Source: Myxococcota bacterium
Lineage (GTDB): Bacteria; Myxococcota; B64-G9
DNA length: 64,000 nucleotides
NCBI GenBank assembly: GCA_022710975.1
Contig: JAKLGA010000013.1
Coordinates: 141,363 to 205,362 of the forward strand
Reading direction: 5' to 3'
Shown here: positions 6,108 through 62,402 of the stretch, piece after piece
Position numbering within the stretch: the stretch's first letter is position 1
Layout: each line of letters starts with the position of its first letter
Position numbers and translations under genes: made by a program
The notes under the pieces: model-generated
Seen by the model: the letters and a program-made list of their open reading frames with translations, nothing else
Databases searched by the model: none
What the model was told of the DNA's origin: nothing

Positions 6108-6114
6108 CCGCCCC

Positions 6115-8598: not shown

Positions 8599-8602
8599 AG
8601 AG

Positions 8603-10669: not shown

Positions 10670-10673
10670 GGGC

Positions 10674-11588: not shown

Positions 11589-11626
11589 GCGCCGAGGTTA
11601 CCCCTCCTGGAGGCTCCTTTCCAGCC

Positions 11627-27863: not shown

Positions 27864-28066
27864 GGGAACCTCCGCGGAATGGACCACGCCCTGGACACGC
27901 TGTGTGGATCTCGAATGCTCGCCCGTCCTTCGCTGTCACACTCTAGCATCGCTGTCAATAGTGTGCCAGGGATCACAAACCCGATTCCGCCTACTTTGTG
28001 GGACGTTGTGCCACCTTGGGTGATGTGTGACATCCTGGCCCGGTGGAGACTCGACCGCGAGGAGGG

Positions 28067-31000: not shown

Positions 31001-31225
31001 CCCGTTCCGGCAGGTCATGCCGTCCGGGCAGGCGTCGAACTCGGCGCAGGGCTGCACCCCCGGGACGCACACCCCGGAGTCGCAGTAGGTGCCGTAGACG
31101 CACTCCGTATCCTGCGAGCAGATGGCGGGGCCGTCCTGGCCGCCGGGGCTCGAGGACGAGCAGCCGGCGGCGAGCGCCAGGGCGAGCAGCAGCAGGGCAG
31201 GGGACAGGCGTCGGAGGTTCGTCAT
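28067..31225 (-). CDS. Giant Cys-rich lipoprotein with choice-of-anchor-D-like repeats and four NCGxCGxxC repeats
   Basis: ATG at 31225 (MTNLRRLSPALLLLALALAAGC) preceded by GAGGT. At least 5 LDFG-type beta-sandwich repeats. Four about 45-aa repeats of type DPQNCGGCGVVCT...WGDCD...NGCET. 1052 aa. Confidence 0.7.
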   Translation of the reverse strand: MTNLRRLSPALLLLALALAAGCSSSSPGGQDGPAICSQDTECVYGTYCDSGVCVPGVQPCAEFDACPDGMTCRNGTCVLSGQPDGGDGGDDQDGEDGEDGADQGPLGPDLEIVQPPLTGDPPLHQLDFGNVAVGLTVEQAIVVRNAGDQELRVLQLNLEAGAEDFAIPSAVTDALPLVLGPGDEASLQVTYSASDGVTDHGVLDIVSNDPDEALVKVHLLSEFKGEARAVLSTPALDFGDVPVGQSGGPLSVSLANQGTGNAVLAVSEVRAPARPDFVLKLVDANGDLAELPALLNQGEFLEAQVTYTPDAPGVDGDELVFSTDDPLAPSLRVPLAGRGAVGALSADPSPVVPGRVRVGAQATVRVNLSNEGDAALAIDSVSLQGVSAEWSLTSGSLDLPNLPTAPHVVPMGEMVWVELTFAPADVGFEAGELVATTSDPVGELRVALHAEGYEPAHVELVPEPAALAFGDVQLDQALGLHETRSLPLVLRSTGGDPLTVAAVARATGTTADYTWQPAAFAPVPSGQEVQLQISFAPTTAGIQNGSLLIDTNDPDVAVDGVVGRVAVSLSARGTDSLIFTTPASAHDFGAAAIGELRSATLSIRNASAYPLAVNEIRMGSGSSPAFGLQGVPVLPALIPDAGGEILVTMLYQPTAGGPASGAVEILSSDLGRPLVTITLQGQCQGCPAGLANCDADPDCETDTQTDPQNCGGCGVVCTAQHGDNPCVGGLCTPECDPLWGDCDNLPRNGCETPTNTLDDCSTCDVRCELPNAVESCSTGACTLTACDWGFHDCNASAGCETRTDNDPAHCGDCDTVCTNAHGGIACANSLCSPSCSSLWGSCDGDPIDGCETQLTSLSDCGFCGTPCGPLANATATCGTGTCAIESCNAGWCDLNNLPANGCEFDLDTNPACGSYTDIGDISGDEGAGRISYSGRGETWLRLYVMETYEDWSSCLYLSTIITLAPGLNTDYDLFAYCDGCSTVADSSSNGGTTLDQVELRWEEECVLGFPSGSDSSRYVYLQVRYYSGATCNPWSLEVYGNPAVATATCSEL

Positions 31226-31348
31226 GGCACCTGACCTCACTTTTCAGTCATGGGCCCGGGCAGGAGGGAGCCAACCGCGCCCCGCTCCGCTAGATACTAG
31301 CCCGCGGATGACAGATCGGTCAATTCGACGACCGGGCGGGCGGCGCGC

Positions 31349-34857: not shown

Positions 34858-34906
34858 GCAGGGCCTCTTGACGGGCCCTCGCGGGTCTGCCTACCCTGAA
34901 TGGGTC

Positions 34907-36862
34907 ATGACGGACCCCGAGAACGGGTGGGGAGCAGCGTTCTCGCTGCTCGACGCGTTGAAGATGCCGGTCGTGCTCCTCGGAGCCGACCGCACCATCC
35001 TGGCCGCGAACCTGGCCGCGCTCAAGCTGGCCGGCGGTCACCCCGAGCAGATCCTGGGTCAGCCCTGCCACCGGCTGTTCCACGGAGGCGCCGAGCGACC
35101 GCCGGCCGATTGCCCCCTCGACAAGGTGATCGCCGCGTGTGGCGAGCAGTCCGCGGAGATGAGGGTGGAGGCCCTGGGCGGGACGTTCCTGGTCTCCTGC
35201 GCCCCGGTGCCGGACGCACGCGGCGGGCCGGTCCGCTACCTGCACGTGCTGCACGACATCACCGAGCGCCTGCAGGCCGAGCGGGCGCTGCAGGACAGCC
35301 AGCGCCACCTGGCCGAGTCCAACCAGATGCTGCAGCTCGTGCTCGACACCATCCCGGTGCGCATCTTCTGGAAGGACAGGGACTGCCGCTTCCTGGGCTG
35401 CAACCGTCTGTTCGCGGAGGACGCCGGCCGCGCCTCGCCGGCCGAGCTCATCGGGCGCACCGACTTCGACATGGGCTGGCGCGAGCAGGCCGAGCAGTAC
35501 ACCCGCGACGACCGCCTGGTGATGGAGAGCGGCCAGGGCAAGGTGGCCTACGAGGAGCCCCAGACCAGCCCGTCCGGCCAGGCCCTGTGGCTGCGGACCA
35601 CCAAGGTGCCGCTGCGCGACCTGGACGGGGAGGTGATCGGGGTGCTGGGCACCTACGAGGACATCACCCCGCAGAAGCAGGCCGAGGAGGAGCGCGCGCG
35701 CCTTTCCGCCCAGCTCCAGCAGGCGGTCAAGATGGAGGCCCTCGGCCGGCTGGCCGGCGGGGTGGCGCACGACTTCAACAATCTCTTGACCAGCATCCTG
35801 GGGTACTCCTCGCTGGGCATGCTGGGGCTCAAGGCGGACGATCCGCTGCACCCCATCCTGGCGGACGTGCGCAAGGCCGCCGAGAGCGCCGCGCACCTGA
35901 CCCGGCAGCTCCTGGCCTTCGCCCGCAAGCAGGTGGTCGAGCCGCGGGTGCTCGATCTGCGCGAGGTGGTCGCCGACCTGCACCGGCTGCTCGGGCGGGT
36001 GATCGGCGAGGACGTGGAGCTCTGCGCCGCGCCGGGCGAGGGGCCGGCCGCGGTGCGGGTGGACCCGGGCCAGGTCGAGCAGATCCTGGTCAACCTGGCG
36101 GTCAACGCGCGCGACGCCATGCCCGGGGGCGGGCGCCTGACCATCTCGACCGGCCAGGAGGTGCTGGAGGATGCGCGGGCGCTGGCCCTGGGGGTGCCCG
36201 CGGGCCGCTACGTGCGCCTGACCGTGGCCGACACCGGCAGCGGCATGGGCGACGAGGTCAAGGCCCACCTGTTCGAGCCGTTCTTCACCACCAAGCCCCG
36301 GGGCCGGGGCACCGGCCTGGGGCTGGCTTCGGTCTACGGCGCGGTGCGCCAGGCCGGCGGCGCCATCGACGTGGACACCGCGGCCGGGCGCGGGACCGCC
36401 TTCCACATCTTCCTGCCCGCGCAGGACGGGCCGGCCGCGCCGCTCCGGCGCGGCCCGGACGAGCCCGAGCTGCCGGCCGGCCACGAGGCGGTGCTGCTGG
36501 TCGAGGACGACGCGGTGGTGCGGGAGGCCGGCCGGCGCATGCTGGAGCGGCTGGGCTACCGGGTGTGGAGCGCCTCGAGCGGCGAGGAGGCCCTGCGGCT
36601 GGTGGTGTCCGGGACCTGCCAGGCGGAGCTGCTCTTCAGCGACGTGGTCATGCCGGGCCTCAACGGCGTGGAGCTGACCCAGCAGCTCCGCGCGATGATC
36701 CCGGGGCTCAAGGTGGTGCTCACCTCGGGTTACGCCGAGGAGGCCGTGGAGCGGCTCGGCGAGCGCGCCCCCGGGGCGCTCTTCCTGCCCAAGCCCTACA
36801 CCGCCGGCAGCCTGGCCGGGAAGCTGCGCGAGGCCCTGGACGGACCGCCCCGCAGGCGCTGA
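34907..36862 (+). CDS. Hybrid sensor histidine kinase (PAS-PAS-HisKA-HATPase-REC)
   Basis: H-box [13 protein letters not shown] boxes [15 protein letters not shown] and GTGLGLA, receiver LLVEDD...DVVMPGLNG...KPY. Confidence 0.8.
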
Positions 36863-36907: not shown

Positions 36908-37576
36908 TTGGGCATCATGCGCGCGCGGAACCCACTTTCAGGAAATGGCATTCTGTTCGGGGTGATCGGCGTCCTGGCGGCCTGGCAGGGCGCGGGCTGT
37001 GAGCGGGGGCCGCTCGAGCTCGTCTGCACGCCCCTGCAACCAGGGGCCCTCGTGGTCACCGAGGTGTCCAGCGCCGGCTGGCACTGGATCGAGATCGCCA
37101 ACCCCGGCGCCAGCGAGATCGCGCTGACGGGCATGCAGTTCCTGTTCGGCGGCGCCGGCGGGACATACGTGGACGAGTTCTGGATTCGCGAGCACGACGT
37201 GAGCCTGGCGCCCGGTGGGCGGTACGTGGCCGCCCGGTTCCCCGGCAGCGTGTCCCCTCCGGCCTGGGCCGACTACCTGTTCGGGGACGAGTTCGACGCC
37301 GACTTCCCCAGCTCCGGCATCCTCGAGATCCACAACTGCGACGATCACGCTGACATCGGCGCCATCAACCCCGAGCTCGTGGACCGCGTCCAGTGGTCCG
37401 GGCTGCCCGAGACCGGGAGCTGGGCCTTCGACGGCGGCCAGGCCCCGAACGCGCTGGCGAACGACACCCCGACGAGCTGGTGCCAGGACTCCCACTCGCA
37501 GACCCTCGGGGCCGGGCCGTACGACACGGTGCTGGGCTCCCCGGGCGAGGACAACCCCCCATGCGCCACCCCCTGA
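36908..37576 (+). CDS. Lamin-tail-domain (LTD) lipoprotein
   Basis: Signal and lipobox ...VLAAWQGAGC. LVVTEVSSAGWHWIEIANPGASEIALTGMQF matches the LTD signature (NE..p...EWIEl.N). Confidence 0.7.
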   Translation: MGIMRARNPLSGNGILFGVIGVLAAWQGAGCERGPLELVCTPLQPGALVVTEVSSAGWHWIEIANPGASEIALTGMQFLFGGAGGTYVDEFWIREHDVSLAPGGRYVAARFPGSVSPPAWADYLFGDEFDADFPSSGILEIHNCDDHADIGAINPELVDRVQWSGLPETGSWAFDGGQAPNALANDTPTSWCQDSHSQTLGAGPYDTVLGSPGEDNPPCATP

Positions 37577-38928
37577 AGCGTTGGTCCACAGCGGTCCTGG
37601 CGCTCGCGCTCGCGCTCGGGCTGAGCGGCTGTTTCGGCGGCTCCAAGACCCAGCGCCGGGCCAACAAGGCCGAGCTGCAGGAGCGCCTGCGGAAGCTCGA
37701 GACCCCGGGCCTGCTGCTGGGCGAGTTCCCGCTGGCCAAGAACGCGGTGGTGGACGGCGACACCATCAAAGTGGCCGGGCTGAACGCCAGCCTGCGCCTG
37801 ACCGGCATGGACACCGAGGAGACCTTCAAGTCCGAGGGCGATAGGCGCCTGTTCGAGATGGGCTGGGAGCACTACCTCAAGACCAAGCGCGGCAAGTCCC
37901 GGCACCCGGTCAAGGCGGCCAGCCCGCTCGGCGAGGACGCCAAGAAGTTCGCCAAGGCCTTCTTCGCCGACGCGGACACGGTGCGCCTGGAGCGCGACCA
38001 CCCCAAGGAGATCCGCGACCGCTACAACCGCTACCTGGCCTACGCCTTCGCCAAGAAGAACGGCGAGTGGGTCAACTACAACGTCGAGGCGGTGCGGGCC
38101 GGCATGAGCCCGTACTTCATGAAGTACGCCTACTCGCGCCGCTTCCACGACCAGTTCGCGGCCGCCCAGCAGGAGGCCCGCGCGGCCCAGCGCGGCATCT
38201 GGAAGCCCGGCGCCATGGCCTACCCCGACTACCCCGAGCGGCTGCGCTGGTGGGAGGCGCGCGCGCGCTACATCAAGGCCTTCGAGGAGGAGGCCGAGGG
38301 CAAGGACGACTACGTCATCCTGACCCAGTGGGACTCGCTGAAGCGCCTGGAGGCCAAGCTCGATCAGCAGGTGACCGTGTTCGGCACGGTGGGGGAGATC
38401 AAGCTCGGCGACCGCGGGCCGACCGTGGCCACGCTCAGCCGGCGCATGTTCGGCGATCTGCAGATCGTCTTCTTCGACAAGGACGTGTTCCTGGGCTCCT
38501 GCATCGGCAACATGACCGGCGAGTTCGTGCGCGTGCGCGGCGCGGTCACCAAGTACCGCGACCGGTTCCGCAAGCGCGAGTACCTCCAGATCGTGGTCAA
38601 CCTGCCGGGCCAGGTGGAGTGCTGCCCGCTGGACTCCGCGTTCGCGGGCTCCGACCCGGCCCAGCCGCCCATGCCCGAGCCGCGCAAGCAGGCCGCGCCG
38701 GCGCGGGCCGAGCCGGCCAAGGCCGGGGAGCCGGCGCCCGCGGAGCCCGAGCCGCCCGAGGACGAGGACGAGACCTGGGAGCAGTGGGCCCCGCCCGCGG
38801 GGGGCGTGGGCGAGGATCCGGGCGACGAGGGCGAGGACGGGGGTGAGGACGAGGGCGCGGACACCCGCGCGGGCGGCGAGGTGGTGGGGGACGACCTGGG
38901 CGACGAATCCGGAGACCAGGCCCCGTGA
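37561..38928 (+). CDS. Staphylococcal-nuclease (SNase/thermonuclease)-like lipoprotein with extended C-terminal domain and acidic tail
   Basis: Signal MRHPLKRWSTAVLALALALGLSGC. SNase motifs VVDGDTIKV and LTGMDTEE. About 250 extra aa, then E/D/P-rich tail. Start overlaps the LTD gene end by 16 nt. Confidence 0.75.
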   Translation: MRHPLKRWSTAVLALALALGLSGCFGGSKTQRRANKAELQERLRKLETPGLLLGEFPLAKNAVVDGDTIKVAGLNASLRLTGMDTEETFKSEGDRRLFEMGWEHYLKTKRGKSRHPVKAASPLGEDAKKFAKAFFADADTVRLERDHPKEIRDRYNRYLAYAFAKKNGEWVNYNVEAVRAGMSPYFMKYAYSRRFHDQFAAAQQEARAAQRGIWKPGAMAYPDYPERLRWWEARARYIKAFEEEAEGKDDYVILTQWDSLKRLEAKLDQQVTVFGTVGEIKLGDRGPTVATLSRRMFGDLQIVFFDKDVFLGSCIGNMTGEFVRVRGAVTKYRDRFRKREYLQIVVNLPGQVECCPLDSAFAGSDPAQPPMPEPRKQAAPARAEPAKAGEPAPAEPEPPEDEDETWEQWAPPAGGVGEDPGDEGEDGGEDEGADTRAGGEVVGDDLGDESGDQAP

Positions 38929-38948
38929 GGGCCTCGGAGGGTAACGGC

Positions 38949-40682
38949 ATGCAGACGGTGCGCAAGGCGTTCGCGGGAGGGGGCTGGGTGGTGCTGGGCG
39001 GGCTCCTGCTCGCGGCGGTCGCGCTGGTGCCGGGCTGCGGCGGGGGCGGGGGAGGGGGCTGCAAGGCCAACCTGCTCGCCGGCGATCTCGCGGTCAGCGA
39101 GATCATGGCCAATCCGGCCGGCGCGGACTCGGGCAAGGAGTGGTTCGAGATCTACAACGCCACGGGCCAGACCCTCCAGCTCGAGGGGCTGACCGTGGTG
39201 CACAGCAAGGCGGACGGCACCGCGGAGAAGACCATCGCCCTGGACGAGGCCCAGGTGGCCGCGGGCGACTACTTCGTGCTGGGCGGTGCGGTGCCGGCCC
39301 TCAAGCCGACATTCATGGACTACGCCTATGGCGCCGCCCTCGGCGATCTCCGCAACACGGACGGCCAGCTGGCGCTGAGGTGCGACGCGCTGGTCATCGA
39401 TTCGGCCACCTACGCCAGCACGGCGGACGGCAGCTCCAGGGTGTTCGACGGCACCCAGGTGCCGGACGCCATCGCCAACGACACCCCCACCAAGTGGTGC
39501 GACTCCGAGGTCGAGTACGAGACCGGCTCCAAGGGCTCGCCCGGCGCGGCCAACGAGCACTGCGAGCCGGTGCTGCCGCCCGGCCAGTGCCAGGACGGCG
39601 CGAACCAGCGCGCGGTCCGGCCGCCGGCCGCGGGCAGCCTGGTGATCAACGAATACATGCCCGATCCGGCCACCCCTGTGGACGACGTAGTCGGCGAGTG
39701 GATCGAGCTCTACACCAGCGCGGACTTCGATCTGAACGGGCTGGAGCTCGGCAAGCTCCCGCCCGACATCGCCCAGACCCTGCCCAACGCCGACTGCGTC
39801 CCCATCCTGGCCGGCACCTACGTGGTGCTGGCCAGGAACGCGGACTCCGCCACCAATGGTGGGTTGCCCCGGGTGGACGCGTTGCTGACCATGTCCCTAT
39901 CCAACGACGCGGTCACGGGCATCTTCGTGGGCTACGGGGGCCAGGTGCTGGACGCCATCACCTACACCTCCTCCGACACCGGCGCCTCGACCGCCCTGGA
40001 TCCGACCAAGCGCAACCCGACCGACAACGATCAGGCCGGGTTCTGGTGCGAGGGAACAGATACCTATGGCGCAGGAAACAAGGGCACGCCCGGCGCGGCC
40101 AACCCCTCCTGCGGCATCATCACCCCGGGCATGTGCCTGGAGGGCGGGGTGGAGCGGGCCAAGGTGGCCCCGGCCGCCGGGGACCTGGTCATCAACGAGC
40201 TCATGGCCAACCCGGCCGCGGTGGAAGACACGGACGGCGAGTGGTTCGAGCTGTACGTGGGCCGGGACGTGGATCTGAACGGCCTGCAGCTCGGCCGCGC
40301 CGTGGGTGTGGTGAGCCTGACGCTCCCGGAGGGCGAGTGCCGCCGGGTGACCGCCGGCAGCCACGTGCTGTTCGCCCAGGAGACCGACCCGCTGGTGAAC
40401 GGCGGCCTCCCGGCCGTGGACGTGCAGCTCACCTTCGCCCTGGTGAACGGCAGCGCGGCCACCCCGGGCACCCTGTTCGTCGGGCTGGCCGGCGCGGTGC
40501 TGGACGACATCAGCTGGACGGGCTCGGACAGCGGCGTGGCCTCGAGCCTGAACCCCGCGGCCCGCAACCCGACCGACAACAACCTGCCCGCGTCCTGGTG
40601 CCCGGCGGTGAACGACTACGGCACGGGCGACCCGACCAAGGACAAGGGCACCCCGGGCGCGGCCAATCCGGCCTGTCCCTGA
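38949..40682 (+). CDS. Triple lamin-tail-domain (3xLTD) lipoprotein
   Basis: ATG preceded by GGAGGG. Signal ...LLLAAVALVPGC. Three LTD repeats (LAVSEIMANP...EWFEIYN, LVINEYMPDP...EWIELYT, LVINELMANP...EWFELYV), each followed by the same about 50-aa Cys-pair segment. Confidence 0.75.
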   Translation: MQTVRKAFAGGGWVVLGGLLLAAVALVPGCGGGGGGGCKANLLAGDLAVSEIMANPAGADSGKEWFEIYNATGQTLQLEGLTVVHSKADGTAEKTIALDEAQVAAGDYFVLGGAVPALKPTFMDYAYGAALGDLRNTDGQLALRCDALVIDSATYASTADGSSRVFDGTQVPDAIANDTPTKWCDSEVEYETGSKGSPGAANEHCEPVLPPGQCQDGANQRAVRPPAAGSLVINEYMPDPATPVDDVVGEWIELYTSADFDLNGLELGKLPPDIAQTLPNADCVPILAGTYVVLARNADSATNGGLPRVDALLTMSLSNDAVTGIFVGYGGQVLDAITYTSSDTGASTALDPTKRNPTDNDQAGFWCEGTDTYGAGNKGTPGAANPSCGIITPGMCLEGGVERAKVAPAAGDLVINELMANPAAVEDTDGEWFELYVGRDVDLNGLQLGRAVGVVSLTLPEGECRRVTAGSHVLFAQETDPLVNGGLPAVDVQLTFALVNGSAATPGTLFVGLAGAVLDDISWTGSDSGVASSLNPAARNPTDNNLPASWCPAVNDYGTGDPTKDKGTPGAANPACP

Positions 40683-40689
40683 GGGCCGC

Positions 40690-41154
40690 ATGCGCTGGGC
40701 TCTCCTGCTCCTCGGCCTCGGGCTCGCGGCCTGCGACGGCGGCGGCGGCGGGGAGAAGGCCGTCGTGGAGCGCATCATCGACGGCGACACGGTCGAGCTG
40801 CAGGACGGCCAGCGCCTGCGCTACCTGATGATCGACACCCCCGAGACCACGGGCGGCGCCACCGACTGCTACGGCCAGGAGGCCAAGGACTTCAACACCC
40901 AGCTCGTGCTCGGCCAGGAGGTGGAGCTCACCTTCGATGTCGAGCGCACCGACAACTTCGGGCGGCTACTGGCCTACGTGTCGGTGGCCGGGCGCGAGGT
41001 GAACACCCTCATGGTCGAGCGGGGCTACGCCTGCGTGCTCCTGATCCCGCCCAACGGCGAGGATCGCCGGGTGGAGTTCGAAAATTTAGAGATGGAGGCG
41101 CGCGGGTTCGGCCGCGGGATGTGGGGGGCGTGCGAGGTGGTAACTTGTGACTAG
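40690..41154 (+). CDS. SNase-like thermonuclease lipoprotein
   Basis: Signal MRWALLLLGLGLAAC. IIDGDTVEL, YLMIDTPE, GRLLAYV. 154 aa. Confidence 0.75.
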   Translation: MRWALLLLGLGLAACDGGGGGEKAVVERIIDGDTVELQDGQRLRYLMIDTPETTGGATDCYGQEAKDFNTQLVLGQEVELTFDVERTDNFGRLLAYVSVAGREVNTLMVERGYACVLLIPPNGEDRRVEFENLEMEARGFGRGMWGACEVVTCD

Positions 41155-41161
41155 AGAGGCT

Positions 41162-41722
41162 TCAGGGCGCGGTCGCCGCCCGGGTACAGCGGGCCGGCCT
41201 CTCCGGCGGCCCGGGGTAGGGGTAGCGGCCGGCCAGGCCGTCCGCCACCAGGCGCTCGTTGAGGTTCACCTTCTTGCACACCACGTAGCCCAGCCTCCGG
41301 CCGTAGGCGTCGCTGTCCGAGCCGGTCACCTCCACCTGCGCGCCCTCGGGGCAGAGTTCCCTGGCGCGCGCCGTGGCCAGCTTGCCGCAGGCCAGCACAT
41401 CCTCGTAGGTCAGGCCCCACTGGCGCGCCTGGCGCCGGGCCCGGGCGCGGGAGTTCCGGTCGAAGCCGCTCTCGGCCGTGTCGACGCCCACCAGGCGCAC
41501 CGCCACGTCCGGCCCGCCGTCGGAGCAGCGCACGTAGGGCGTGTCGCCGTCCTCCCACTCCACCAGCAGGCAGGGCATGGGGGGCGCCTCCCGGGACAGC
41601 TCCTCGAGGGTGGGGATGGGCGCGGGCGGACGATCGCCGAACGGGGAGTCCGAGGCGTCCCCGTCGGTGGCGCAGGCCGCGGGCAGCGCGAGAAACACCA
41701 TGGCTAGCTTGGAGATCCCCAT
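41162..41722 (-). CDS. SNase-like thermonuclease (third copy), probably a lipoprotein starting at an internal ATG around 41701
   Basis: WEDGDTPYV, LVGVDTAE, RRLGYVV motifs. MVFLALPAACATDG looks like the true signal and lipobox. Confidence 0.65.
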   Translation of the reverse strand: MGISKLAMVFLALPAACATDGDASDSPFGDRPPAPIPTLEELSREAPPMPCLLVEWEDGDTPYVRCSDGGPDVAVRLVGVDTAESGFDRNSRARARRQARQWGLTYEDVLACGKLATARARELCPEGAQVEVTGSDSDAYGRRLGYVVCKKVNLNERLVADGLAGRYPYPGPPERPARCTRAATAP

Positions 41723-43880
41723 GACGCGACGGTACTCCCTTACGCTCCTGGCGGCAACCCTGACGCTGCTCGGCCTGGGCGGCCCGAGCGCGCGGGCCGT
41801 GGACTACGGCGTGTTCGTCGAGGTGGAGACCGAGGAGGACATCCTCGACCTCCTGGCGGCCGGCGATCTCGACGAGGACGACGCCGAGACGCTGATCGAG
41901 CTCCTGGCGCAGGGGCTGGTGCTCGACCGGGCCAGCCGCGAGGAGCTGTACGCGCTGCCGAACCTGTCCTACGCGGACGTGGACGCCATCCTGGACTACC
42001 GCAAGGACGCCGGGGTGATCCCGGACCCGATGAACCTGGTGGTGGGCGGGGCCCTGGACGAGAAGAAGCTGCTGGCCATCGCCCCCTTCCTGGTGATCGA
42101 GGAGGAGGAGCCGGGCACCTTCCCCACCAAGGGCCGCTTCCGCTATCGCACGGCCTACGTGGCCGGGGACGAGAAGGTCCCCAGCATGATGCTGTCGGCC
42201 AGGGTGTCCACCCTGAAGAACCTGGACATCGGGCTGGTGGGCGTGCTGACCCACGGCCGGATCGGCGACGTCCGCTACGATCCCAACCGCGACGCGCTCT
42301 CGGCCGAGGGGCCGGCCGTGCGGGCGCACCTGCCCAAGTTCTACCTCCAGTGGGACACCACGAGCTGGCAGGTGGCGGCCGGGACCTACCGCATCGGCTT
42401 CGGCCAGCGGCTGACCTTCGACAACACCACGGCCTACACCCCGAACGGCATCAAGCTGGACGAGACCATCAACATGGCCCAGGACCTCGCCAACCAGTGC
42501 CGGGAGACCGCGGGTGAGCTGCCCAGCCCGTGCCTGGACGAGGACTACTACCAGTACGGCGCGCCCGACTACCGCTGGACCGACCGGCTGCGGGGCATCG
42601 CGGCCGGCTTCAAGCACGCCGAGGCCGGCCCGGGCTGGTTCCAGGGCTACGGCTTCCTGAGCTTCCAGACCCACAGCCCCACGCAGTACCAGATCTACCG
42701 CCCGGATCACTGCGACGACCCCTTCTCGGACGATTCCGAGTGCTCCGCGCCGGATCTGTTCCTGCGCCGCGGCGACCTGCTCGCCGACACCACCGAGCTG
42801 AAGTGGGCCGTGCTGCCGGACATGTTCAACGAGCTGCTGGGCGGGGCCAACGTGGCCTACTTCTTCAATCGCCGCACCCACGTGGGGGTGACCGGCTACG
42901 GGGCCGACCTGTACTGGCTGACGGAGGGCATCCAGCTCGACCTCCAGGACTGGGCGCGCCTGCCCTTCGGCGGGCCGTTCGGCGCGGTGGGGGTGGACGC
43001 GGCCTGGGGCCACGAGGTGATCGACCTCTTCCTGGAGCTCACCCGCTCCTTCGACTCCCAGCCCGCGGGCGGCGGCTGGGCCGCGCTGCTGCGCGGCACC
43101 GCCACCTGGAAGAAGCACGAGTTCGAGGCCACCGCGCGCTACTTCGACCAGGACTTCAACAACCCCTACGCCCGGCCCATCGCCGCGGACGACCAGTACC
43201 AGGGCCTGCGGGCCTCGGACGAGGCCGGGGTGAAGCTGAAGTACACCGGCGACCTGGGCGACCTCGATCTGCGCGCCGCGCTCGATGTGTGGGCCCAGCT
43301 CTCGGGCGAGATCCCGCGGACCTTCCTGTACCTGCGCGCCAGCTACGAGGTCGAGGAGTGGTTCAAGCCCGGGCTGTACTTCGACTACAGGGACAAGGAT
43401 CTCAGCGACACCGGCCGGGACAACTGCTACGTGGGCGAGGACTACGAGGACGAGGGGACCGGGGAGCCGACCGACTGCAAGGGTGAGAAGATCCGGGTCG
43501 GGCTGGAGCTCAAGTTCCAGCCGCTCAAGCGCCTGGGGATCACCGCCAAGTACCAGCACGGCTGGGTGGACGACGGCGGCACGTACTACCCGGACTCCAG
43601 GCGCCAGGACATCTCGGCCTGGGTGATCGCCATGTACAAGCCCATCGACGGGGTGCGGCTGCGCCTCCGGGTGCGCTACCTGAACGAGGGCATCGCCGAG
43701 AACGACTACCTGGAGCAGTCGGTGTGGGCGTACCTCGAGGGCTCCTACTGGTACGAGCGCTACTTCGGGGTGAAGCTGCGCTACGAGCTGTACGCCATCG
43801 TGGACGAGCGCGACAGCACCCAGCAGCGCTCCCCCAACCCCGCCCACTGGCTCCGGCTGGAGCTCGAGTACCGCTTCTGA
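41721..43880 (+). CDS. Large outer-membrane beta-barrel protein with N-terminal ComEA-like helix-hairpin-helix
   Basis: Signal MTRRYSLTLLAATLTLLGLGGPSARA. ASREELYALPNLSYADVDAILDYRKDAGVIPDPMNLV aligns with the ComEA HhH consensus. About 600 aa of alternating aromatic beta strands ending ...LELEYRF. Confidence 0.65.
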   Translation: MTRRYSLTLLAATLTLLGLGGPSARAVDYGVFVEVETEEDILDLLAAGDLDEDDAETLIELLAQGLVLDRASREELYALPNLSYADVDAILDYRKDAGVIPDPMNLVVGGALDEKKLLAIAPFLVIEEEEPGTFPTKGRFRYRTAYVAGDEKVPSMMLSARVSTLKNLDIGLVGVLTHGRIGDVRYDPNRDALSAEGPAVRAHLPKFYLQWDTTSWQVAAGTYRIGFGQRLTFDNTTAYTPNGIKLDETINMAQDLANQCRETAGELPSPCLDEDYYQYGAPDYRWTDRLRGIAAGFKHAEAGPGWFQGYGFLSFQTHSPTQYQIYRPDHCDDPFSDDSECSAPDLFLRRGDLLADTTELKWAVLPDMFNELLGGANVAYFFNRRTHVGVTGYGADLYWLTEGIQLDLQDWARLPFGGPFGAVGVDAAWGHEVIDLFLELTRSFDSQPAGGGWAALLRGTATWKKHEFEATARYFDQDFNNPYARPIAADDQYQGLRASDEAGVKLKYTGDLGDLDLRAALDVWAQLSGEIPRTFLYLRASYEVEEWFKPGLYFDYRDKDLSDTGRDNCYVGEDYEDEGTGEPTDCKGEKIRVGLELKFQPLKRLGITAKYQHGWVDDGGTYYPDSRRQDISAWVIAMYKPIDGVRLRLRVRYLNEGIAENDYLEQSVWAYLEGSYWYERYFGVKLRYELYAIVDERDSTQQRSPNPAHWLRLELEYRF

Positions 43881-47990: not shown

Positions 47991-48070
47991 CTCTGATGGT
48001 GCCAGCCGATTTCCCTGCCAGCCGATTTCCCTCTGATGGTGCCAGCCGATTTCTGCAAGATTTCTGCAAA
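47991..48070. repeat. Short direct repeats (ctgatggtgccagccgatttc x2, gccagccgatttcc x3, gatttctgcaa x2)
   Basis: Seen directly in the sequence between the hypothetical gene end and the transposase 3' end. Confidence 0.6.
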
Positions 48071-48273
48071 CGCCGGGTGGGCAGGACCGCCGAATCGCGG
48101 CAGGGTGAGTTTCTAGACCGGGTGAGCCCCTCCGCGGGTCTGCGGAGGCTCGGTTTCAGGTCAGATCGGAACGCTCATGCGGCTGGATTCTGGGCTTCGT
48201 GCAGGGGTCTGCCTCTGGCCAGGCCGTCAGGTAGTGATCTTCGCTTGTCGGACGCTCGTCACTTGACCGTGGC

Positions 48274-49215
48274 TCACGGCGGGCCGGCGCCCTGGTAGGC
48301 CAGGGCCGGTGGGAAGCAGTGCTCCGGGAAGATCGCGGTCAGGTCTCCAGCTCTCAGCCTGGCTGAGGCCTCCCGGAACACGCTCGCGAACGTCCGGTAG
48401 GCGGCGCGGTAGGCCTTCCAGAGCACCGCGCTCGCCGTGTGGCAGGAGGGCGCCCTGCTGCGCTTCACTTCTTTCGGAATGCCGTGCGGGTGCTGGGCCA
48501 GGATGCGGTGAACGCCCATCGGTCGGGTGCCTTCTTTCTCGTGCCGCTCCTTCGTCTCGGCCTCGATGTCCGCGACCATGGCCCGGACCTTCGCCTGTCG
48601 CGCCTCCTCGCTGAGGTCCGCCCAGCAGGGCAGAGGAGCCATCGGGATCGGGTAGCGGATGAACGCCTCCTCGGGCTTCAGGCCATCCTCGCAGCCCATC
48701 GGATCCTGGCTCGGGTCGCTGGAGCTTCTCGGCTTCCGGTGCAGGGCGGTGTGATCGACCCACACGCCCTCGAGCTGCTTCCCCTCGAGGAGGGCGGGCA
48801 GGCAGCTGACCCCGGGCCAGTCCCCGGGCATCATCACCAGGCCTTCCTTGCAGCCGTGGGAGAGGATGTAGCGCAAGCGGGCGACCAGCGCCTCGTCGTC
48901 GCGGATGGGGATGGCGCGGTAGCGCCTCTCCCAGAAGGGCCCGTGCCAGCCGTGGAGCTTGTTCACCTGGCGGGCGATGTTGGACTCGAGGTAGCCCATG
49001 AAGGCGGAGATGGCCTGGGAGCTCAGGCCCCTGAGGAGCAGGTGGAAGTGGTTGGAGGCCCAGAAGAAGGCGAAAATGCCGATCTCTGGGAACTGGTCCA
49101 GGGCGCGGCCGAGGCAGCCGAGGAGGATGGCGTTGAGCTCTTCGGAGGGGCGGAGGAGGAGCCTGCCCATGACGGTGCGGTTGGTGATCTCGAACAGGGT
49201 GCCCGGCTCGGGCAT
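48274..49215 (-). mobile_element. HuH Y1 tyrosine transposase, IS200-like / REP-associated (RAYT-like) family
   Basis: FEITNRTVMGRLLL then FWASNHFHLLL (HuH motif, cf. MPNHFHLLL of RAYTs), and GPFWERRY...RYILSHGCKEGLV...PGDWPGVS (Tyr region). R/P-rich N-terminal 107 aa of the table ORF judged non-coding. Flanked by palindromic REP-like repeats. Confidence 0.6.
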
Positions 49216-49469
49216 GAAGCGCAGCGGTCTCGGCAAGGTTCCCCTCCGTGAAACCTGCCCTGCAAACCGCTTGCCAGCTTGAGCTAGCCAACGAAGATGG
49301 CGTTGACCTGGACGCGGTCGTGGCTGACAATCGAGGCATGGCGATGGGTTGCGAGGATCGGGGACGGAGGGAGTGGTCGACAGAGCGCCAGGCCGAGGCC
49401 CTGCCTGTACTGCCTGACGTGACCGGAATCCGGTCACCGTGGATGAAAAAACCGGACACGCTCCGGGCG

Positions 49470-49630
49470 GGGCCAGGACCTCGGGAGCTGGCGCTGAGAA
49501 TAGGGTGTCACGCACTGGGGGAAAATAGGGTGGCACGCGCTGGGGCGCTGAACGACCCTGTCACCAAGACAGGGCGATTGGAAGGTCGGAGGGTCGGCGC
49601 TGAAAGACCCTGGCACCAGTACAGGGGAGA
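49470..49630. repeat. REP-like tandem and palindromic repeats (tagggtgNcacgcNctgggg x2; gcgctgaaNgaccctgNcaccaNNacagggg x2)
   Basis: Each long unit contains an inverted repeat (ccctgtc...gacaggg). The last unit at 49597-49627 recurs at 50041-50070. Confidence 0.5.
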
Positions 49631-49636
49631 TAATAC

Positions 49637-49960
49637 ATGGCGACATACATTGAAGAGTTTCGGGAATTGATCGCCTCAGAATTCCCAAAGGAACGGGAAA
49701 GGGCAGCAGACGAGGTCACTGACATCCATAGAGGTGTGGGTGATGCCGAGGCAGTTGAATTTGCTAGAATCCTCGTAGCGGCAAGGTTGGTAGAACCAGA
49801 CCTGGCTTGCCAGGAAGCGCAGCTTCATGCAATCTGCGATCTCATGGCCTGGCATCACATTCCGGCTGAAGCTGTGATGCCACTCAAAGAGCTTCGAGGA
49901 AAATCCGACCTGGGAGCACAAGAGGAGTACCTCGAAGATATCATTGGAAAACCTCCCTAA
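49637..49960 (+). CDS. Small hypothetical protein in a low-GC island (107 aa)
   Basis: GC drops to about 50% over 49630-49990. Complete ORF MATYIEEFRELIASEF...EDIIGKPP with natural composition. Flanked by about 30-bp direct repeats. Confidence 0.4.
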   Translation: MATYIEEFRELIASEFPKERERAADEVTDIHRGVGDAEAVEFARILVAARLVEPDLACQEAQLHAICDLMAWHHIPAEAVMPLKELRGKSDLGAQEEYLEDIIGKPP

Positions 49961-50040
49961 CCACGATTGGGTATAGGTCTACATCCGAGGTCGGGTAGCG
50001 AGGTCGCATCAACACTTCTCGAGATTCTTGAGCCTGTGCC

Positions 50041-50395
50041 CGCTGAAAGACCCTGGCACCAGGACAGGGGGACAGGGGGCACCAGGACAGGGGCACCAGG
50101 ACAGGGGGGCTGCGTGCGGCGTGCAGCGTGCGGCGTGCGGCGTGCGAAGTGCGGCGAAGGGCGAACGGAGTGAAGAGTGCAGTTCCTCGTTCCAGGTTCC
50201 ACGTTCCAAGTTCCTGGTTCTTACCCCTTTAAGCCTGCCCTGAGCGATTCACACACGGAAGGTCTGCCAGCTCCAGCCAACTGCTCTTAGCGATACCCAC
50301 ACGCGGGGTTTGCAAACTCACGCCAACTGCTCTAGCGATTCACACACGCAGGGTCTGCCAACACCAGCCAACGGCTCACCAGCGCTGCTCGCGGG
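50041..50395. repeat. Repeat-rich intergenic island: DR copy, (ggcaccaggacagggg)x3, (gcgtgcg)n, gttccaNgttcc repeats, and three about 47-bp imperfect tandem repeats
   Basis: Direct reading. 50239-50385 holds three units of type agcgattcacacacgNagggtctgccaNNNccagccaacNgctc. Confidence 0.6.
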
Positions 50396-51956
50396 TGGTG
50401 ACCTGGCTGCTCGGGGTGCGTGCGGACAGGGGCTGGAGGTCGCAGCCGGCCAGGGACACCTCGGGCAGCGACCCGTCGAACGCTTCCAGCCCGGTCACCC
50501 GGAGCCCGCACGCACCGCTGATGGGCTGGTCGAACAGCACCACGAAGGCGCGGTTGCTGAAGTGGTGGTGCGGGGCGCTGTAGACCAGCTTCCAGTAGTC
50601 GAGCTGGTCGAAGGCCACGCCGTCCAGCTCCCCCCGGCCCTCGAGGAACACCGCCGGCCCGGGGAACAGGGCGGTCGCGCCGAAGCGCACCGTGAGCTCG
50701 ACCCAGCCGCCCTGGAACTCCACCCGGTGGATCTCCTGCTGGACCCAGTTGGGGAAGGTGCAGGAGTCGAGGCCGCGGAGCTCGCCGCCCGCCGTCGGGC
50801 TGACGAGCAGGCTCGCGCCCAGCCCCTCCATGTCCGGATCCGCGCCGTCCAGGCTGAAGGCCTGGGTGCCCGGGGGGCCGCTCACCCGGACCTGGAGGGT
50901 GTAGCCCTCCCCGCCCGGGGCCTCGAGCGGCTCCTCGAGGTTGAAGCTCGTGGCGTACTGGCCGTAGGTCGCGGTCACCTGGCCCACGCCCGAGAGCGCC
51001 GGCGAGGCCTGCGGATCGAGGAAGGCCACGCACACCGGCAGCCGGTAGGGCTCGCTGCCGGCGGCGTCGGGCAGGCGGTACTCGCCGGGCAGCACCCGCG
51101 CCTCGGTCTTGCGCTGGTAGGCCTCCTCCAGCCCGGTGCCCGCGGGCTCGTTCCACTCGCGGTAGGTCAGGCAGTAGACCGCGTCCTGGGTGGCGGTCAG
51201 GGTCGTGGTCCAGGCGCCTCCCACGTAGGCCATGGGATCGTCCGGGCAGTCGAGCGAGCTCCCGTCGCAGGCCTCGGCCGCGTCGCAGGAACCCGCCGAC
51301 GGGCGGCACTCCGTCCCCGGCTGGGCCGGGCTCCAGCCGGCCGGATCGCGCTCCGGGTCGCACACCGCGCAGGCGCGCGCGGGGTCCACGCTGCCCACGG
51401 GCAGGCAGACGCCGCCGATGTCGCAGCAGGCCGCGTCCTCCAGGCACAGGCCGCTGGCCGGGTCCCGGCTGTAGCCCGGGGCGCAGCTCGCGCAGGCGCC
51501 GCCCGTGTAGCCGCTGTCGCAGGTGCACACCGCCTGGCCGGTCGAGCCGTCGCAGGCGCCGTGGCCCGAGCAGGAGTCCGGCCCGCACGGATCCACCACG
51601 TCGGGCACGCAGGCGCCGGCCCCGTCGCCGTGGTGGCCGGCCGCGCAGGTGGAGCAGTCCGCGCCCGCGTAGCCCGTGTCGCAGGCGCAGTCGATCACCC
51701 CTCCTACCAGGCTGCAGGCGCCGTGGCCCGAGCAGGAGCCCGCCTCGCAGACCTCGTCGGCCACGCACGCCTGCCCCTGCTCGTGGAAGCCGGTCAGGCA
51801 GTCGCCGCAGATCGCGTGTCCCTCCACGGCCAGGCACCCGCGGTGCTGCTCGAGGCACTGCGTGTCGTCGGCGCAGGGGTCGGCGACCGTGTTGCCACAG
51901 GCAGACGCAAGGACGAAAAGGACAGCAAGGACGCAAGGGACGAAGCGGTCTCGCAT
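50376..51956 (-). CDS. Lipoprotein with EGF-like Cys-rich repeats
   Basis: Signal MRDRFVPCVLAVLFVLASAC. Repeats CSGHGAC....C.C..GY.G..C..C. 526 aa. 11-bp gap from upstream gene suggests an operon. Confidence 0.6.
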   Translation of the reverse strand: MRDRFVPCVLAVLFVLASACGNTVADPCADDTQCLEQHRGCLAVEGHAICGDCLTGFHEQGQACVADEVCEAGSCSGHGACSLVGGVIDCACDTGYAGADCSTCAAGHHGDGAGACVPDVVDPCGPDSCSGHGACDGSTGQAVCTCDSGYTGGACASCAPGYSRDPASGLCLEDAACCDIGGVCLPVGSVDPARACAVCDPERDPAGWSPAQPGTECRPSAGSCDAAEACDGSSLDCPDDPMAYVGGAWTTTLTATQDAVYCLTYREWNEPAGTGLEEAYQRKTEARVLPGEYRLPDAAGSEPYRLPVCVAFLDPQASPALSGVGQVTATYGQYATSFNLEEPLEAPGGEGYTLQVRVSGPPGTQAFSLDGADPDMEGLGASLLVSPTAGGELRGLDSCTFPNWVQQEIHRVEFQGGWVELTVRFGATALFPGPAVFLEGRGELDGVAFDQLDYWKLVYSAPHHHFSNRAFVVLFDQPISGACGLRVTGLEAFDGSLPEVSLAGCDLQPLSARTPSSQVTTREQRW

Positions 51957-51966
51957 GGGAGGTCTC

Positions 51967-54900
51967 CTACTTGATCCGGCCGATCAGGATGGCCGCGCGG
52001 TGCACGGTCAGGGTCTCGTCCGCGCCCAGCGCGTCGTCGAAACAGTCCAGGCAGGACGGGGTCTGGCTCGCGGACCACATGGCCCCGGTGTCCCAGGTGT
52101 TGAACTGGGCCGAGGCCACCGCCAGCGTGGCCGGGAGCGCGGCCGCCTGGCCCGGGCCGGCCAGCTCGAGCGCGCCCTCGAGCAGCGCGCTGCCCGCGCA
52201 GGTCGCGCCGGCGAGCGCCTGCCAGCCTGCGCCGTCCCACTCCCAGAAGCCGCACACCCCGGCGCCCGGCTCCTCGATGAGCGCGAGCAGCCTGCCTCCG
52301 GCGACCGGCCCGGCCAGCGTGCCCGCCTTGGCCCAGGGGAAGGACACTCGCTCGCTCGGGTGCGCGCCGCCCAGCCACACGAACAGCATCTTGTCCGTGG
52401 AGCCCGGGATGCCGCGCGCCCCGGCCAGGTACAGCGTGCCCTGATCGTTGAGCGCGGCGTGGATCGGCTCGGGCGCCGCGGCCAGCTCGGGCGGCCCGGC
52501 CGGCAGGGTGTCGGCGAAGGCGTCCAGGGCCCCGTCCCCGGCCAGGAAGGGCTGGCGGAGCGTGAGGTCGAAGTCGTCCACGGTGAGCGCCGCGCCCCCG
52601 TCCCAGCCGGCCTCGGGTTCGATCAGCAGGCCGCCGCCCACGGCGGCCGGCAGCGGGGCGCCGGCGATCTCGGCCGAGGCCACGAGCTCGACGAAGGCCG
52701 CGCCGTCCGCGCTGGCCTGGGCGCCAGGCGCGGGCGCGCCGTCGAGCCACACGGCCGGCCGGGCCGCGGCGGCCGGATCGTCCTCCCGCACCCAGGCGTG
52801 GAAGGTGAGGGTCTGGCCCGCGGGCGGTCCGGGGAAGGGCCGCGCGATGCGGAGCGCGTTCCCGTCCGGACCGGTGACGGTGAGGCCGGCCGCCTGGGCG
52901 CCCCGCGAGACCGGGCTCGCCACCGGCGCGGCCTGGAGCCCGCCGGCCACGACCAGGTCGGGCGGGGGCTCACCCGCGGCCCAGCTCTCCTCGAAGCCCC
53001 AGTTCGAGGCGTCCGCCGCGGAGGCGGTCGAGGTGAGCGCGCCGGCCTGGGCCGGGCCGTAGCCGTCCTCGCTGCCGTCCAGGCCTTCGCCCGCGTCCCG
53101 GTCGCACAGGGTCCAGGTCTGGCCGCCGTTGGCCGAGAAGCGGAAGGCGAAGTCGTAGGGCGAGCCCGCGGCCCGCGGGATCACCAGCTCGGCCTGGTAC
53201 TCGTCGTTGCCCGGCTCCCCCGAGGCGCCGCCGTCCCAGCCCGCGTTGGGCCCGGCGGGCAGCCACACCCAGCCGCCCTGGTCGGGCAGGCTGCCGTCCG
53301 GGCCGTAGCCCAGCTCGGCGCCCACCTGGGCCGAGGGGTCGATCCCCGGGGTGAGGTCCGTGAGCCCCTGGATGTACACCCGCCCGTACACGGTCGCCTG
53401 GCTGCCCTCGGCCTGGTCGAGCTCGGTCGGCCACTGCAGCCGGCACCAGCCCACCTGGGGGCCGGCGTCCGTGCGGCTGGCGAGCTTGCCGGCGTTGGCG
53501 GCCTGGTAGCCGTCCTCGCTGCCGTCGTGGCCAGCCCCGGCGGCCCGGTCGCACACGGTCCAGGTCGCCCCGGAGTCGGCCGAGAAGCGGAAGGCGAAGT
53601 CGTAGGGCGAGCCCGCCGCGGGCGGGACGGTGAGGGTGGCCCAGTACTCGTCGTTGCCCGGCTCGGCCGCGTCCAGCCAGCCCGGGTTGGGCGCGGCCGC
53701 GAGCCAGGTCCAGCCGGCCTGGGCGGGATCGCTGCCCCGCGGGCCGTGGCCGAGCTCCGCCTGGACGCGCGGGTCCGCGTCGGTGCCCGCGCCGCGGGTG
53801 GTCACCCCCAGGATGTACAGGCGGCCGTACACGTCCACCTGGGCGCCCTCGAGCTCGTCGAGGTCGAGCGGCCACTGCAGCCGGCACCAGTCCACCCGGT
53901 AGACCACGCAGGCCGGATCCGCGCCGCAGTCCCCGTCCAGGCAGTCCCCGGAGCCGTCGCCGTCGTTGTCCTGGCCGTCGGTGCAGCAGCGCTCCGCCCC
54001 GGGCTCGCACGCGCCCTGCGCGCAGACGTCGCCCTGGGTGCAGGCGTCCTGATCGTCGCAGGGGGCGCTGTTGAAGGGGTAGGTGCAGCCCGTGGCCGGC
54101 TGGCACAGGGCGTCGGTGCAGGGGTCGGCGTCCTGGCACACCACGGCCTCCCCGCGGCACTCGCCCTGCTGGCAGCGGTCGTCCTGGGTGCAGGCGTTCC
54201 CGTCCTGGCAGTCCGCCTGGTTGGGGCTGAACACGCAGCCCGTGTCCGGATCGCAGCTCGCGTCGGTGCAGGGGTTCGCGTCGCTGCAGGTGACCGCGGC
54301 GCCGCCGCAGCCGCCGGCCTGGCACTGGTCGTCCCGGGTGCAGGCGTCGCCGTCGTCGCAGCCCGCGCCGTCGGCCAGCGGCTGGAGCTGGCAGGCGCCG
54401 CTCGCGGGCACGCAGGTGTTCCGCTGGCAGGGCGGGTCGGCGCTGGTGTCGCAGCCGGGGTGGGGCACGATCTCGCAGCGGCTCTGCCGGCAGGCGAGCG
54501 TCCCGTTGCAGGCGTCGTGGTCCTCGTAGGGTTCGCAGTCGGCGTCCGCGCCGCACTGGCAGGAGTTGGTCCCGCCGGTGCACTGGCCGCCGCTGCAGCC
54601 CTCGCCCGTGGTGCACGGGTTCGCGTCGTCGCAGGAGGCGGCGTTGGGCGCGTGGGTGCAGGCCCCGCCGGCGCAGCCGTCGTCGGTGCAGGGGTTCTGG
54701 TCGTCGCAGTCTCGCGGGCTGCCCGCACAGGCGCCCGCCTGGCAGGCGTCGTTCTGCGTGCAGGCGTCCCCGTCGTCGCAGGCGTTCTGGTTCGGGGCGT
54801 GCACGCAGCCGGTCCGGGAGTCGCAGGAGTCGTCGGTGCAGGGGTTCTGGTCGTCGCAGGAGATCCGCTCGCCGGCGCACACGCCGCTGGCGCAGGTGTC

Positions 54901-55254: not shown

Positions 55255-55394
55255 CGGGCGACTCCTCGGGAAGGGGGATGTCTGGGGCAGTCTAGATCCT
55301 GCGCGCCTTTCCCTCAAGGAGGCCTTTGCCTTGTTTTCTCAGGGACCTTCTTGGTATCGTGCGCTGGATGCGTCGGGGAGGGAGGAGAATCCAG

Positions 55395-56903: not shown

Positions 56904-56933
56904 GAATCCGGGCGCAGAGGGCGGGGGAGGCGG

Positions 56934-61325: not shown

Positions 61326-61447
61326 CGTCCTTCCTCCGGCTTGCGACCGGCGTTTCGTGCTCGACCCGGCTGAAAAAGGCCACTCATTCCTAGCGCCGGA
61401 CGCCCCACAGGACAAGACCCCATTTGTGGCTGTCTTCCCCGGGCGGG

Positions 61448-62266: not shown

Positions 62267-62402
62267 GCGGGCCGGGATGATGCCACGCGGGGCCGACGTT
62301 GTCGAGGCGCAGATGCGCGGGAAAAAGGCTGCACAAGCGATGGTTGCGCCGGGAGGCGTTGCCGGGTTACACCAGGGGGCGGCAGCAGCCAGGAGGGCAG
62401 GC

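Follow-up and report, generated by a model that had tools for sequence, protein, structure and literature searches.

A lipoprotein-nuclease operon of Myxococcota encodes an outer-membrane β-barrel with a ComEA-like N-terminal domain, a candidate component of extracellular-DNA utilisation

Is an outer-membrane (OM) barrel that carries a competence-type domain at its N terminus involved in the handling of DNA, and in what way? The question is raised by a gene in a 64,000-nucleotide stretch of contig JAKLGA010000013.1 (positions 141,363 to 205,362) from a Myxococcota bacterium, assembly GCA_022710975.1; this whole stretch is hereafter referred to as the window. A first-pass annotation of the window had described the gene product as a signal peptide followed by a ComEA-like helix-hairpin-helix (HhH) domain and a large OM β-barrel with a C-terminal Phe, and had proposed that it is a "DNA receptor or channel". 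Our analysis revealed that the described architecture is correct and is conserved throughout a protein family down to 25–30% identity. A DNA-related role of the barrel is strongly supported by gene context, i.e. by an operon with nuclease and lamin-tail-domain (LTD) genes, by the swap of one nuclease for another in divergent relatives and by neighbouring genes of nucleoside salvage and phosphate uptake. For the HhH domain itself, binding of DNA is putative. Since both hairpins have lost the G-h-G signature and the net charge of the N-terminal domain (N-domain) is close to −15, the "DNA receptor or channel" proposal counts as a reasonable hypothesis for the barrel and not more. The best-supported reading is that the operon forms a module by which phosphate and nucleosides are gained from extracellular DNA, the barrel being its dedicated OM component, and it is the gene context that provides the decisive evidence for this reading.

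In the window the barrel gene closes a run of five genes on one strand, LTD1, SNase1, LTD3, SNase2 and the barrel gene (Table 1). Lipoprotein signal peptides were found on all five accessory proteins, including the product of SNase3, a gene inserted antisense. In LTD3 the lipobox LVPGC is followed by GGGGGGG, and the protein contains 13 Cys. The OB-fold in SNase1 is of a kind that binds nucleic acids. SNase2 matches the NCBIfam thermonuclease models NucI and EcnA only at the level of the domain, under their cut-offs. SNase1 of the window shows 100% identity to a protein listed at NCBI under "Myxococcota bacterium".

A scan of GTDB species genomes found relatives of the barrel protein in 303 species. 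Gene neighbourhoods were compared by tblastn over the 80 best loci. The order and strand of the module genes are nearly constant across them. Upstream flank of more than 3 kb is available for 72 loci, and in 71 of them SNase and LTD genes lie co-directionally upstream of the barrel gene; these loci belong to Nannocystaceae, Kofleriaceae, Sandaracinaceae and uncultured Myxococcota. Homologues of LTD3, at times duplicated, are present in 75/80 loci, as are homologues of SNase2; those of LTD1 were detected in 71/80, co-directional and approximately 4–5 kb upstream of the barrel. Lipobox-like signals are found in 71–84% of the accessory homologues (50/69 for LTD1, 63/75 for SNase2), and the same pattern occurs in 3 of 78 barrel homologues. 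SNase3 is present in 9/80 loci only.

Contigs of divergent members (25–34% identity; L081 and L083 to L090) were looked up separately. An LTD protein is encoded after the barrel in L085, L086, L087 and L090, and in L084 the neighbour of the barrel gene is a divergent gene whose product has three LTD repeats. In L081 a gene for PLDc_2, a Nuc-type nuclease, is followed by the barrel gene and then by an LTD gene. Loci L088 and L089 share the order PHO4, PLDc_2, barrel, with an LTD gene after the barrel in L089. A 149-aa SNase gene overlaps the barrel gene in L083, where no LTD is encoded. The pairing of barrel and LTD in divergent branches indicates that the two constitute the core of the module. 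Since the nuclease is drawn from either of two unrelated families, SNase or PLD-type, nuclease activity appears to be the shared function; the exchange of SNase for PLDc_2 looks like non-orthologous displacement.

The metabolic neighbours are those of nucleoside and phosphate use. In the Nannocystaceae branch a gene for a NupC/CNT nucleoside transporter adjoins the operon (20/80 loci), either divergently upstream or directly downstream of the barrel gene, and genes for thymidine kinase (6 loci) and uracil phosphoribosyltransferase (3 loci) were found between it and the operon. In L089 (positions 1–12274) the PLD-barrel-LTD genes are preceded by genes for a PstB-like ABC ATPase, PhoU, an HD hydrolase, an OmpR-type response regulator, PhoU_div and PHO4, a neighbourhood of the phosphate-starvation type. 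Competence genes were not found among the recurrent neighbours.

The first-pass annotation had also called for a search for homologous architectures, and this search defined a family in which N-domain and barrel go together. When phmmer was run with the barrel alone as a query against 1.84 billion cluster representatives at 50% identity, 390 proteins were matched at E ≤ 1e-3 and 152 at E ≤ 1e-30. In every full-length match the barrel is preceded by about 95–165 residues, which makes the N-domain an integral part of the family. A database search yielded more than 836 full-length homologues of approximately 700–790 aa. Relatives of the architecture beyond the family were sought by sequence. The best 80 loci include Nannocystis exedens DSM 71, N. 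bainbridge, N. radixulma, Plesiocystis pacifica SIR-1, Enhygromyxa salina and Paraliomyxa miuraensis, as well as metagenome-assembled genomes of Kofleriaceae, Sandaracinaceae, Polyangia and other Myxococcota. All organism-labelled matches are from Myxococcota except for one odd label: the contig CAYTLW010000097.1, annotated as "uncultured Enterobacteriaceae", has a typical SNase-LTD-SNase-barrel module with 48% identity, and this bin is probably mislabelled or chimeric.

We used Pfam and profile searches to assess the N-domain. The segment ASREELYALPNLSYADVDAILDYRKDAGVIPDPMNLV, which had been singled out as HhH, corresponds to aa 71–107, and its HhH likeness is above chance as judged by Pfam HHH_3 and by profile matches to ComEA and EEPD1. 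HHH_3 (PF12836) is the sole Pfam match of the whole barrel protein and a weak one. It covers profile positions 5–64 of 65 and scores 16.6 bits (E 0.0088) with the whole protein and 20.4 bits (E 5.7e-4) with the isolated N-domain, both values being under the Pfam gathering threshold of 27 bits. A profile built from 44 homologues (alignment A1) matched PDB sequences of ComEA (8dss, E 3.2e-6) and of the HhH repeats of EEPD1 (E 2.9e-7) over aa 60–140. Among the matches listed, most homologues have a precomputed PF12836 hit. The tandem (HhH)2 fold of approximately 60 residues, which defines ComEA and HHH_3, is present. We conclude that the HhH of the N-domain is real at the level of fold and family.

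The barrel was analyzed with the help of an AlphaFold2 (AF2) model, whose overall pLDDT is 85.8. Residues 137–718 are modelled as β-strands, mostly with pLDDT of 85–97, and short turns of 2–5 residues alternate with longer loops. The number of strands, which the first-pass annotation had left to be defined, is about 24 as read from the DSSP string of the model, and the alternation of turns and loops suggests 24 transmembrane strands with both termini in the periplasm. Three loops, 227–289, 319–368 and 559–588, are long and predicted to be extracellular, and each contains an invariant Cys pair. The protein ends with LELEYRF. No match for the barrel region was found in Pfam at E ≤ 10 or in NCBIfam, and when the family profile was compared with PDB sequences the HhH part alone was matched. 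The closest structural matches of the barrel are the 24-strand usher pores, though these are weak (TM-scores 0.38–0.5, identity 8–10%).

Lumen-facing residues of each strand were assigned via hydrophobic periodicity. The resulting net charge of the lumen, an approximate value, is +9 for the query, with a mean of +9.7 and a range of 0 to +17 in 193 homologues. Conserved runs of Arg, e.g. R646/R648/R650/R652 and R139/R141, are among the residues assigned to the lumen. A basic lumen of this approximate charge hints at a polyanion path or at a site where the acidic N-domain docks.

The mature protein begins with a conserved strand-like peptide ("DYGVFIDVE" in the family). In the alignment of 44 homologues Y29 is invariant and F32 nearly so, and the peptide is retained in members at 25–34% identity. 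Residues 27–37 are unstructured in the AF2 model (pLDDT 44–78). Their position at the mature N terminus is that of a TonB box, although the sequence differs from the canonical box; a role in β-augmentation similar to that of a TonB box is a conjecture based on this analogy.

The module comprises one or two LTD lipoproteins, two SNase lipoproteins, one of them with an OB-fold, and the barrel of approximately 24 strands. According to the model that we favour, the lipoproteins, anchored in the OM, would hold and cut DNA from prey or dead cells. The Arg-lined barrel would pass DNA or oligonucleotide fragments across the OM, and the ComEA-like HhH, tethered at the periplasmic mouth of the barrel, would receive or retain the incoming nucleic acid or gate the pore. 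Further hydrolysis would yield phosphate and nucleosides, which would be taken up across the inner membrane by PHO4 or Pst and by NupC and salvaged by thymidine kinase and uracil phosphoribosyltransferase. Periplasmic topology of the N-domain, direction of transport, identity of the substrate and DNA binding by HhH and LTD are parts of this model that we infer. We assign a probability of about 0.5 to the barrel being an import conduit for DNA or oligonucleotide fragments. An import conduit is favoured because of the ComEA-type domain at the presumed periplasmic mouth, the basic inferred lumen, the usher-like size of the barrel and the precedent of the Bacteroidales ddb and Riemerella systems described below. 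The usher pores PapC and FimD are wide enough for a folded pilin and admit cargo no narrower than a DNA duplex.

A more far-reaching version of import, which is tentative and which we consider rather unlikely, is an OM translocon for nucleic acids that is free of pilus and secretin. Polymeric DNA would thread the Arg-lined 24-strand pore, and the channel-tethered, ComEA-derived domain would ratchet it inward; alternatively, the acidic N-domain would be a DNA-mimicking plug of the basic lumen until displaced. Lipoprotein nucleases anchored in the OM and facing the periplasm would digest the DNA, and the N-terminal peptide might couple the barrel to an energising partner in the manner of a TonB box.

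The module resembles several known systems without being a member of any. Depletion of DNA by Bacteroidales depends on the ddbABCDEF locus, which encodes lipoprotein nucleases together with a DNA-binding lipoprotein and an OM transporter (PMC12478041). In Riemerella, homologues of the ddb transporter pair are needed for transformation to occur (PMC8459023), and Riemerella anatipestifer also needs a periplasmic HhH protein. The ddb locus and the myxobacterial module have in common lipoprotein nucleases, a putative substrate-binding lipoprotein, a dedicated OM barrel and a link to nucleoside or nucleobase metabolism. They share, however, no homologous parts. DdbC is a TonB-dependent transporter (TBDT) with a plug, whereas the family barrel has about 24 strands and no TBDT or Plug hit; DdbD is a DUF5689 protein of p202-like fold; the myxobacterial barrel, by contrast, is accompanied by LTD proteins and by nucleases of SNase or PLD type. 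The HhH is a separate protein in Riemerella and is fused to the barrel here, and the phylum is Myxococcota. The myxobacterial module is a functional analogue of ddb and not a member.

Similar to SusCD and other TBDT systems, an OM barrel and surface lipoproteins are encoded in one locus, a domain precedes the barrel, and a peptide is placed like a TonB box. Unlike these systems, the family lacks a SusD-like partner and has about 24 strands instead of 22; no Pfam match to Plug (PF07715) or TonB_dep_Rec (PF00593) was found in the barrel protein, and TonB dependence is conjectural. Chaperone-usher proteins (FimD, PapC; PF00577) differ in that the family has no Usher Pfam hit, and no plug or usher N- and C-terminal domains by sequence, and in that the neighbours are nucleases and LTD proteins rather than chaperones or pilins. 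Slam is a 14-strand DUF560 barrel with TPR, whereas the family has approximately 24 strands, an HhH N-domain and no Pfam match to DUF560 or TPR. ComEA (PDB 8dss, 8dfk) is a small soluble or membrane-anchored DNA binder, whereas here the domain heads a 590-aa OM barrel, an extra acidic helical segment and the conserved N-terminal peptide precede the HhH, and the G-h-G hairpins are replaced. The barrel would act in the manner of an OM transporter from a polymer-utilisation locus, but it is outside the described families: it has the defining features of neither TBDTs, ushers, Slam nor ddb, and with ComEA it shares only the fold. In ExeM/NucH-type extracellular nucleases and in the "DNA-degradation loci" of Izemoplasmatales, LTDs are tied to nucleases and OB-folds and lie beside nucleoside transporters (PMC6085458, PMC8289736). 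There the LTD is fused to the nuclease and no dedicated OM barrel is present; here separate lipoproteins are encoded around the barrel. A full-text literature search of limited coverage found no description of an HhH-barrel fusion or of this operon. The operon is a DNA-utilisation locus made from non-homologous parts around a new barrel family.

Several observations weigh against the import of DNA by the barrel. The G-h-G signature is absent from both HhH motifs in the 44 homologues: hairpin 1 reads L-P-N-L-[TS]-Y without exception, and [AG]-[VA]-[LI]-[SD] stands in hairpin 2. Divergent members (25–34% identity) keep the whole N-domain and are nearer to the canonical motif, with LPG[LIV]T in hairpin 1, where the first Gly is retained. 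The mature N-domain (aa 27–126) has a mean net charge of −15 in 193 homologues (range −22 to −7), to which the acidic helical segment before the HhH core contributes −11 and the core about −4; for comparison, the charge of ComEA HhH cores is about −2. DNA binding by the HhH of the barrel is therefore putative, and the net charge argues for caution. Docking of the acidic N-domain in the lumen was considered as well, but the expected co-variation of charge was not found (rho −0.11, p 0.12, n = 193). The position of the N-domain, periplasmic or in the lumen, and the charge of the lumen are predictions from the DSSP string and sequence periodicity. The strong acidity of LTD1, LTD3 and SNase2 is unusual for DNA binders. 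Should the surface nucleases degrade DNA as far as mono- or dinucleotides, these could enter by general porins, and no 24-strand barrel would be required. No energy source for transport is evident at the module, and NupC and Pho genes do not adjoin the operon in the window itself. Finally, in L079, the sole such locus with adequate flank, the barrel is without SNase or LTD neighbours.

All six proteins of the module are negatively charged overall and four of them strongly so, with net charges of −20 for LTD1, −8 for SNase1, −42 for LTD3, −13 for SNase2, −3 for SNase3 and −43 for the barrel protein (36908–43880); the proteins are also Cys-rich. Binding via bridging cations or life in a saline habitat may lie behind the acidity, which is explained by none of the proposed models.

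Some of these features would fit transport in the opposite direction. The barrel might be an export or display device that moves the LTD and SNase lipoproteins to the surface or threads their Gly-rich tethers, the HhH docking the substrates and the products of DNA hydrolysis entering via porins. By analogy it could be likened to Slam with its surface lipoproteins, to ushers with their Ig-like pilins and to OM proteins threading RcsF. We regard export, the main rival of import, as possible but doubtful. Extracellular nucleases require a route to the surface, the partners of the barrel are lipoproteins, the poly-Gly tether of LTD3 comes right after the lipid-anchored Cys, and barrel plus LTD is the most conserved pairing, seen in all informative divergent loci but L083. 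Ushers export folded Ig-like domains, and the LTD is an Ig-like β-sandwich; the best structural match of the barrel being a 24-strand usher is in line with export, as are the non-canonical hairpins and the acidic N-domain, which fit protein binding better than DNA binding. However, the usher likeness is weak (9% identity at the TM-scores given above) and does not include an usher plug or terminal domains by sequence, and the barrel has no sequence relation to Slam (DUF560), ushers, TpsB or BamA, Pfam being empty at E ≤ 10. In L083 the barrel goes with a small SNase and without LTD, and neither a ComEA-type fold nor an Arg-rich lumen would be needed for the export of lipoproteins.

Two further explanations were weighed, and we consider both improbable. 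In natural transformation without pilus or secretin, long double-stranded DNA would enter through the barrel, be held by the ComEA-like domain and be passed to ComEC, while the nucleases trim it or make single strands. The N-domain is ComEA-like, and transformation of Riemerella depends on a periplasmic HhH protein along with an OM barrel and a surface lipoprotein (PMC8459023), a system homologous to the DNA-catabolic locus (PMC12478041). In addition, the nuclease-free locus L079 has, ~600 bp downstream of the barrel gene (7489–7986, minus strand), a gene for a bona fide, canonical small ComEA-like protein of 165 aa (HHH_3 E 2e-11). The constant partners of the barrel are, however, non-specific, fully degrading nucleases (SNase, PLD-Nuc), and transformation fits less well since the linked genes are catabolic, being those of nucleoside salvage and phosphate uptake and not comEC, dprA or recombination genes. 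The barrel could also be a general or structural OM protein or an anchor for DNA of the biofilm matrix, with an HhH-like module for protein interactions and a link to nucleases through co-regulation only. HhH-like modules are known in proteins that do not bind DNA, e.g. PsbU of the same Pfam clan, and the non-canonical hairpins, the acidity of the domain and the solitary barrel of L079 would agree with such a role. A purely structural role fits poorly with the synteny in 71/72 loci with their tight or overlapping junctions. The link between barrel, LTD and nuclease also persists at 25–30% identity despite the swap of nucleases, a persistence that is hard to account for unless the proteins are tied together physically or through a pathway.

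In soils and sediments, extracellular DNA makes up a major reservoir of P, N and C. To our knowledge, passage of DNA across the OM of diderms is known only for type IV pilus/secretin competence and, since 2025, for the TonB-dependent system of Bacteroidota. If utilisation of extracellular DNA through the barrel is true, the family represents a third, structurally unrelated solution, widespread in the predatory, bulk-lysing Myxococcota, and a barrel that translocates polymeric DNA would be categorically new. The same reading offers a concrete, testable role for bacterial lamin-tail domains. The module is small, comprising five genes, and is present in the cultivable Nannocystis, Plesiocystis and Enhygromyxa.

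Table 1. Features of the barrel gene, its product and the accessory genes (positions in the window)
Feature	Position	Strand	Basis or remark
Barrel gene	41721..43880	+	ATG at 41721, stop 43878–43880, product 719 aa
Barrel signal peptide, aa 1–26, non-lipoprotein type	41721..41798	+	read from sequence MTRRYSLTLLAATLTLLGLGGPSARA
Strand-like conserved peptide VDYGVFVEVET, aa 27–37, mature N terminus	41799..41831	+	alignment A1
Acidic helical segment (aa 38–64), then ComEA-type tandem helix-hairpin-helix (aa 65–125)	41832..42095	+	
β-barrel, ~24 predicted strands, aa 137–719, three long disulfide-bearing extracellular loops, C-terminal Phe	42129..43877	+	AF2 model
LTD1, small lipoprotein with one lamin-tail domain, first gene of module	36908..37576	+	Pfam LTD weak, E 0.001; lipobox ...WQGAGC
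SNase1, lipoprotein nuclease with staphylococcal-nuclease domain, helical linker, OB-fold domain and disordered acidic tail	37561..38928	+	
LTD3, lipoprotein with three lamin-tail domains, Gly-rich linker after lipid-anchored Cys	38925..40682	+	Pfam LTD E 4.9e-25, three stretches
SNase2, minimal staphylococcal-type lipoprotein nuclease, directly upstream of barrel in most genomes	40690..41154	+	Pfam SNase E 5.1e-19; lipobox GLAAC
SNase3, accessory SNase-type lipoprotein between SNase2 and barrel	41162..41722	−	Pfam SNase E 1.7e-9; G+C at third codon positions (GC3) 0.95 in frame

The ATG of the barrel gene is codon 61 of a stop-to-stop open reading frame starting at 41541. It is preceded by GGAG 7 nt upstream, and the GC3 of the gene is 0.97 in a window of ~72% G+C. 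The start codons of the barrel gene (41721, plus strand) and of SNase3 (41722, minus strand) overlap head-to-head (41720–41723). Therefore, either the promoter and ribosome-binding site of each gene lie inside the coding sequence of the other, or transcription of the barrel gene reads from upstream across the antisense strand of SNase3.

Genes on either side of the operon were considered as parts of the module. A PAS/histidine-kinase hybrid (34868–36862) as a dedicated regulator was rejected: weak tblastn matches (26–33% identity) were found in 9/80 loci only, mostly on the other strand. The downstream genes for an enoyl-CoA hydratase and a GNAT protein recur in only 3–4 of the 80 loci and were likewise not included. 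A role in defence was rejected as well, as there is no PADLOC match for the barrel or LTD proteins and the linked genes are metabolic. At the domain level SNase1 (E 3e-17) and SNase2 (E 1.5e-13) match the PADLOC candidate-defence model C3a212 "SNc+LTD"; the SNase-LTD fusion is thus flagged elsewhere as a candidate defence protein.

Elsewhere in the window, G+C falls to 0.64 at 48001–50000, compared to ~0.72–0.77 in the rest. A 420-aa open reading frame at 48274–49536 (minus strand) has a weak match to IS200-like Y1 transposases (PF01797, E 6.3e-6), and this region may be a mobile or REP-associated element. Very large proteins of secreted or surface type are encoded at 25533–31243 (minus strand) and 50376–62366. 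The large proteins of the window comprise two ASH/DUF1573 Ig-like repeat proteins (800 and 1058 aa), Cys-rich proteins with EGF/disintegrin-like and Dictyostelium repeats and an 1810-aa gingipain-like C25 peptidase with PKD domains, and they are consistent with a predatory or surface-active lifestyle.

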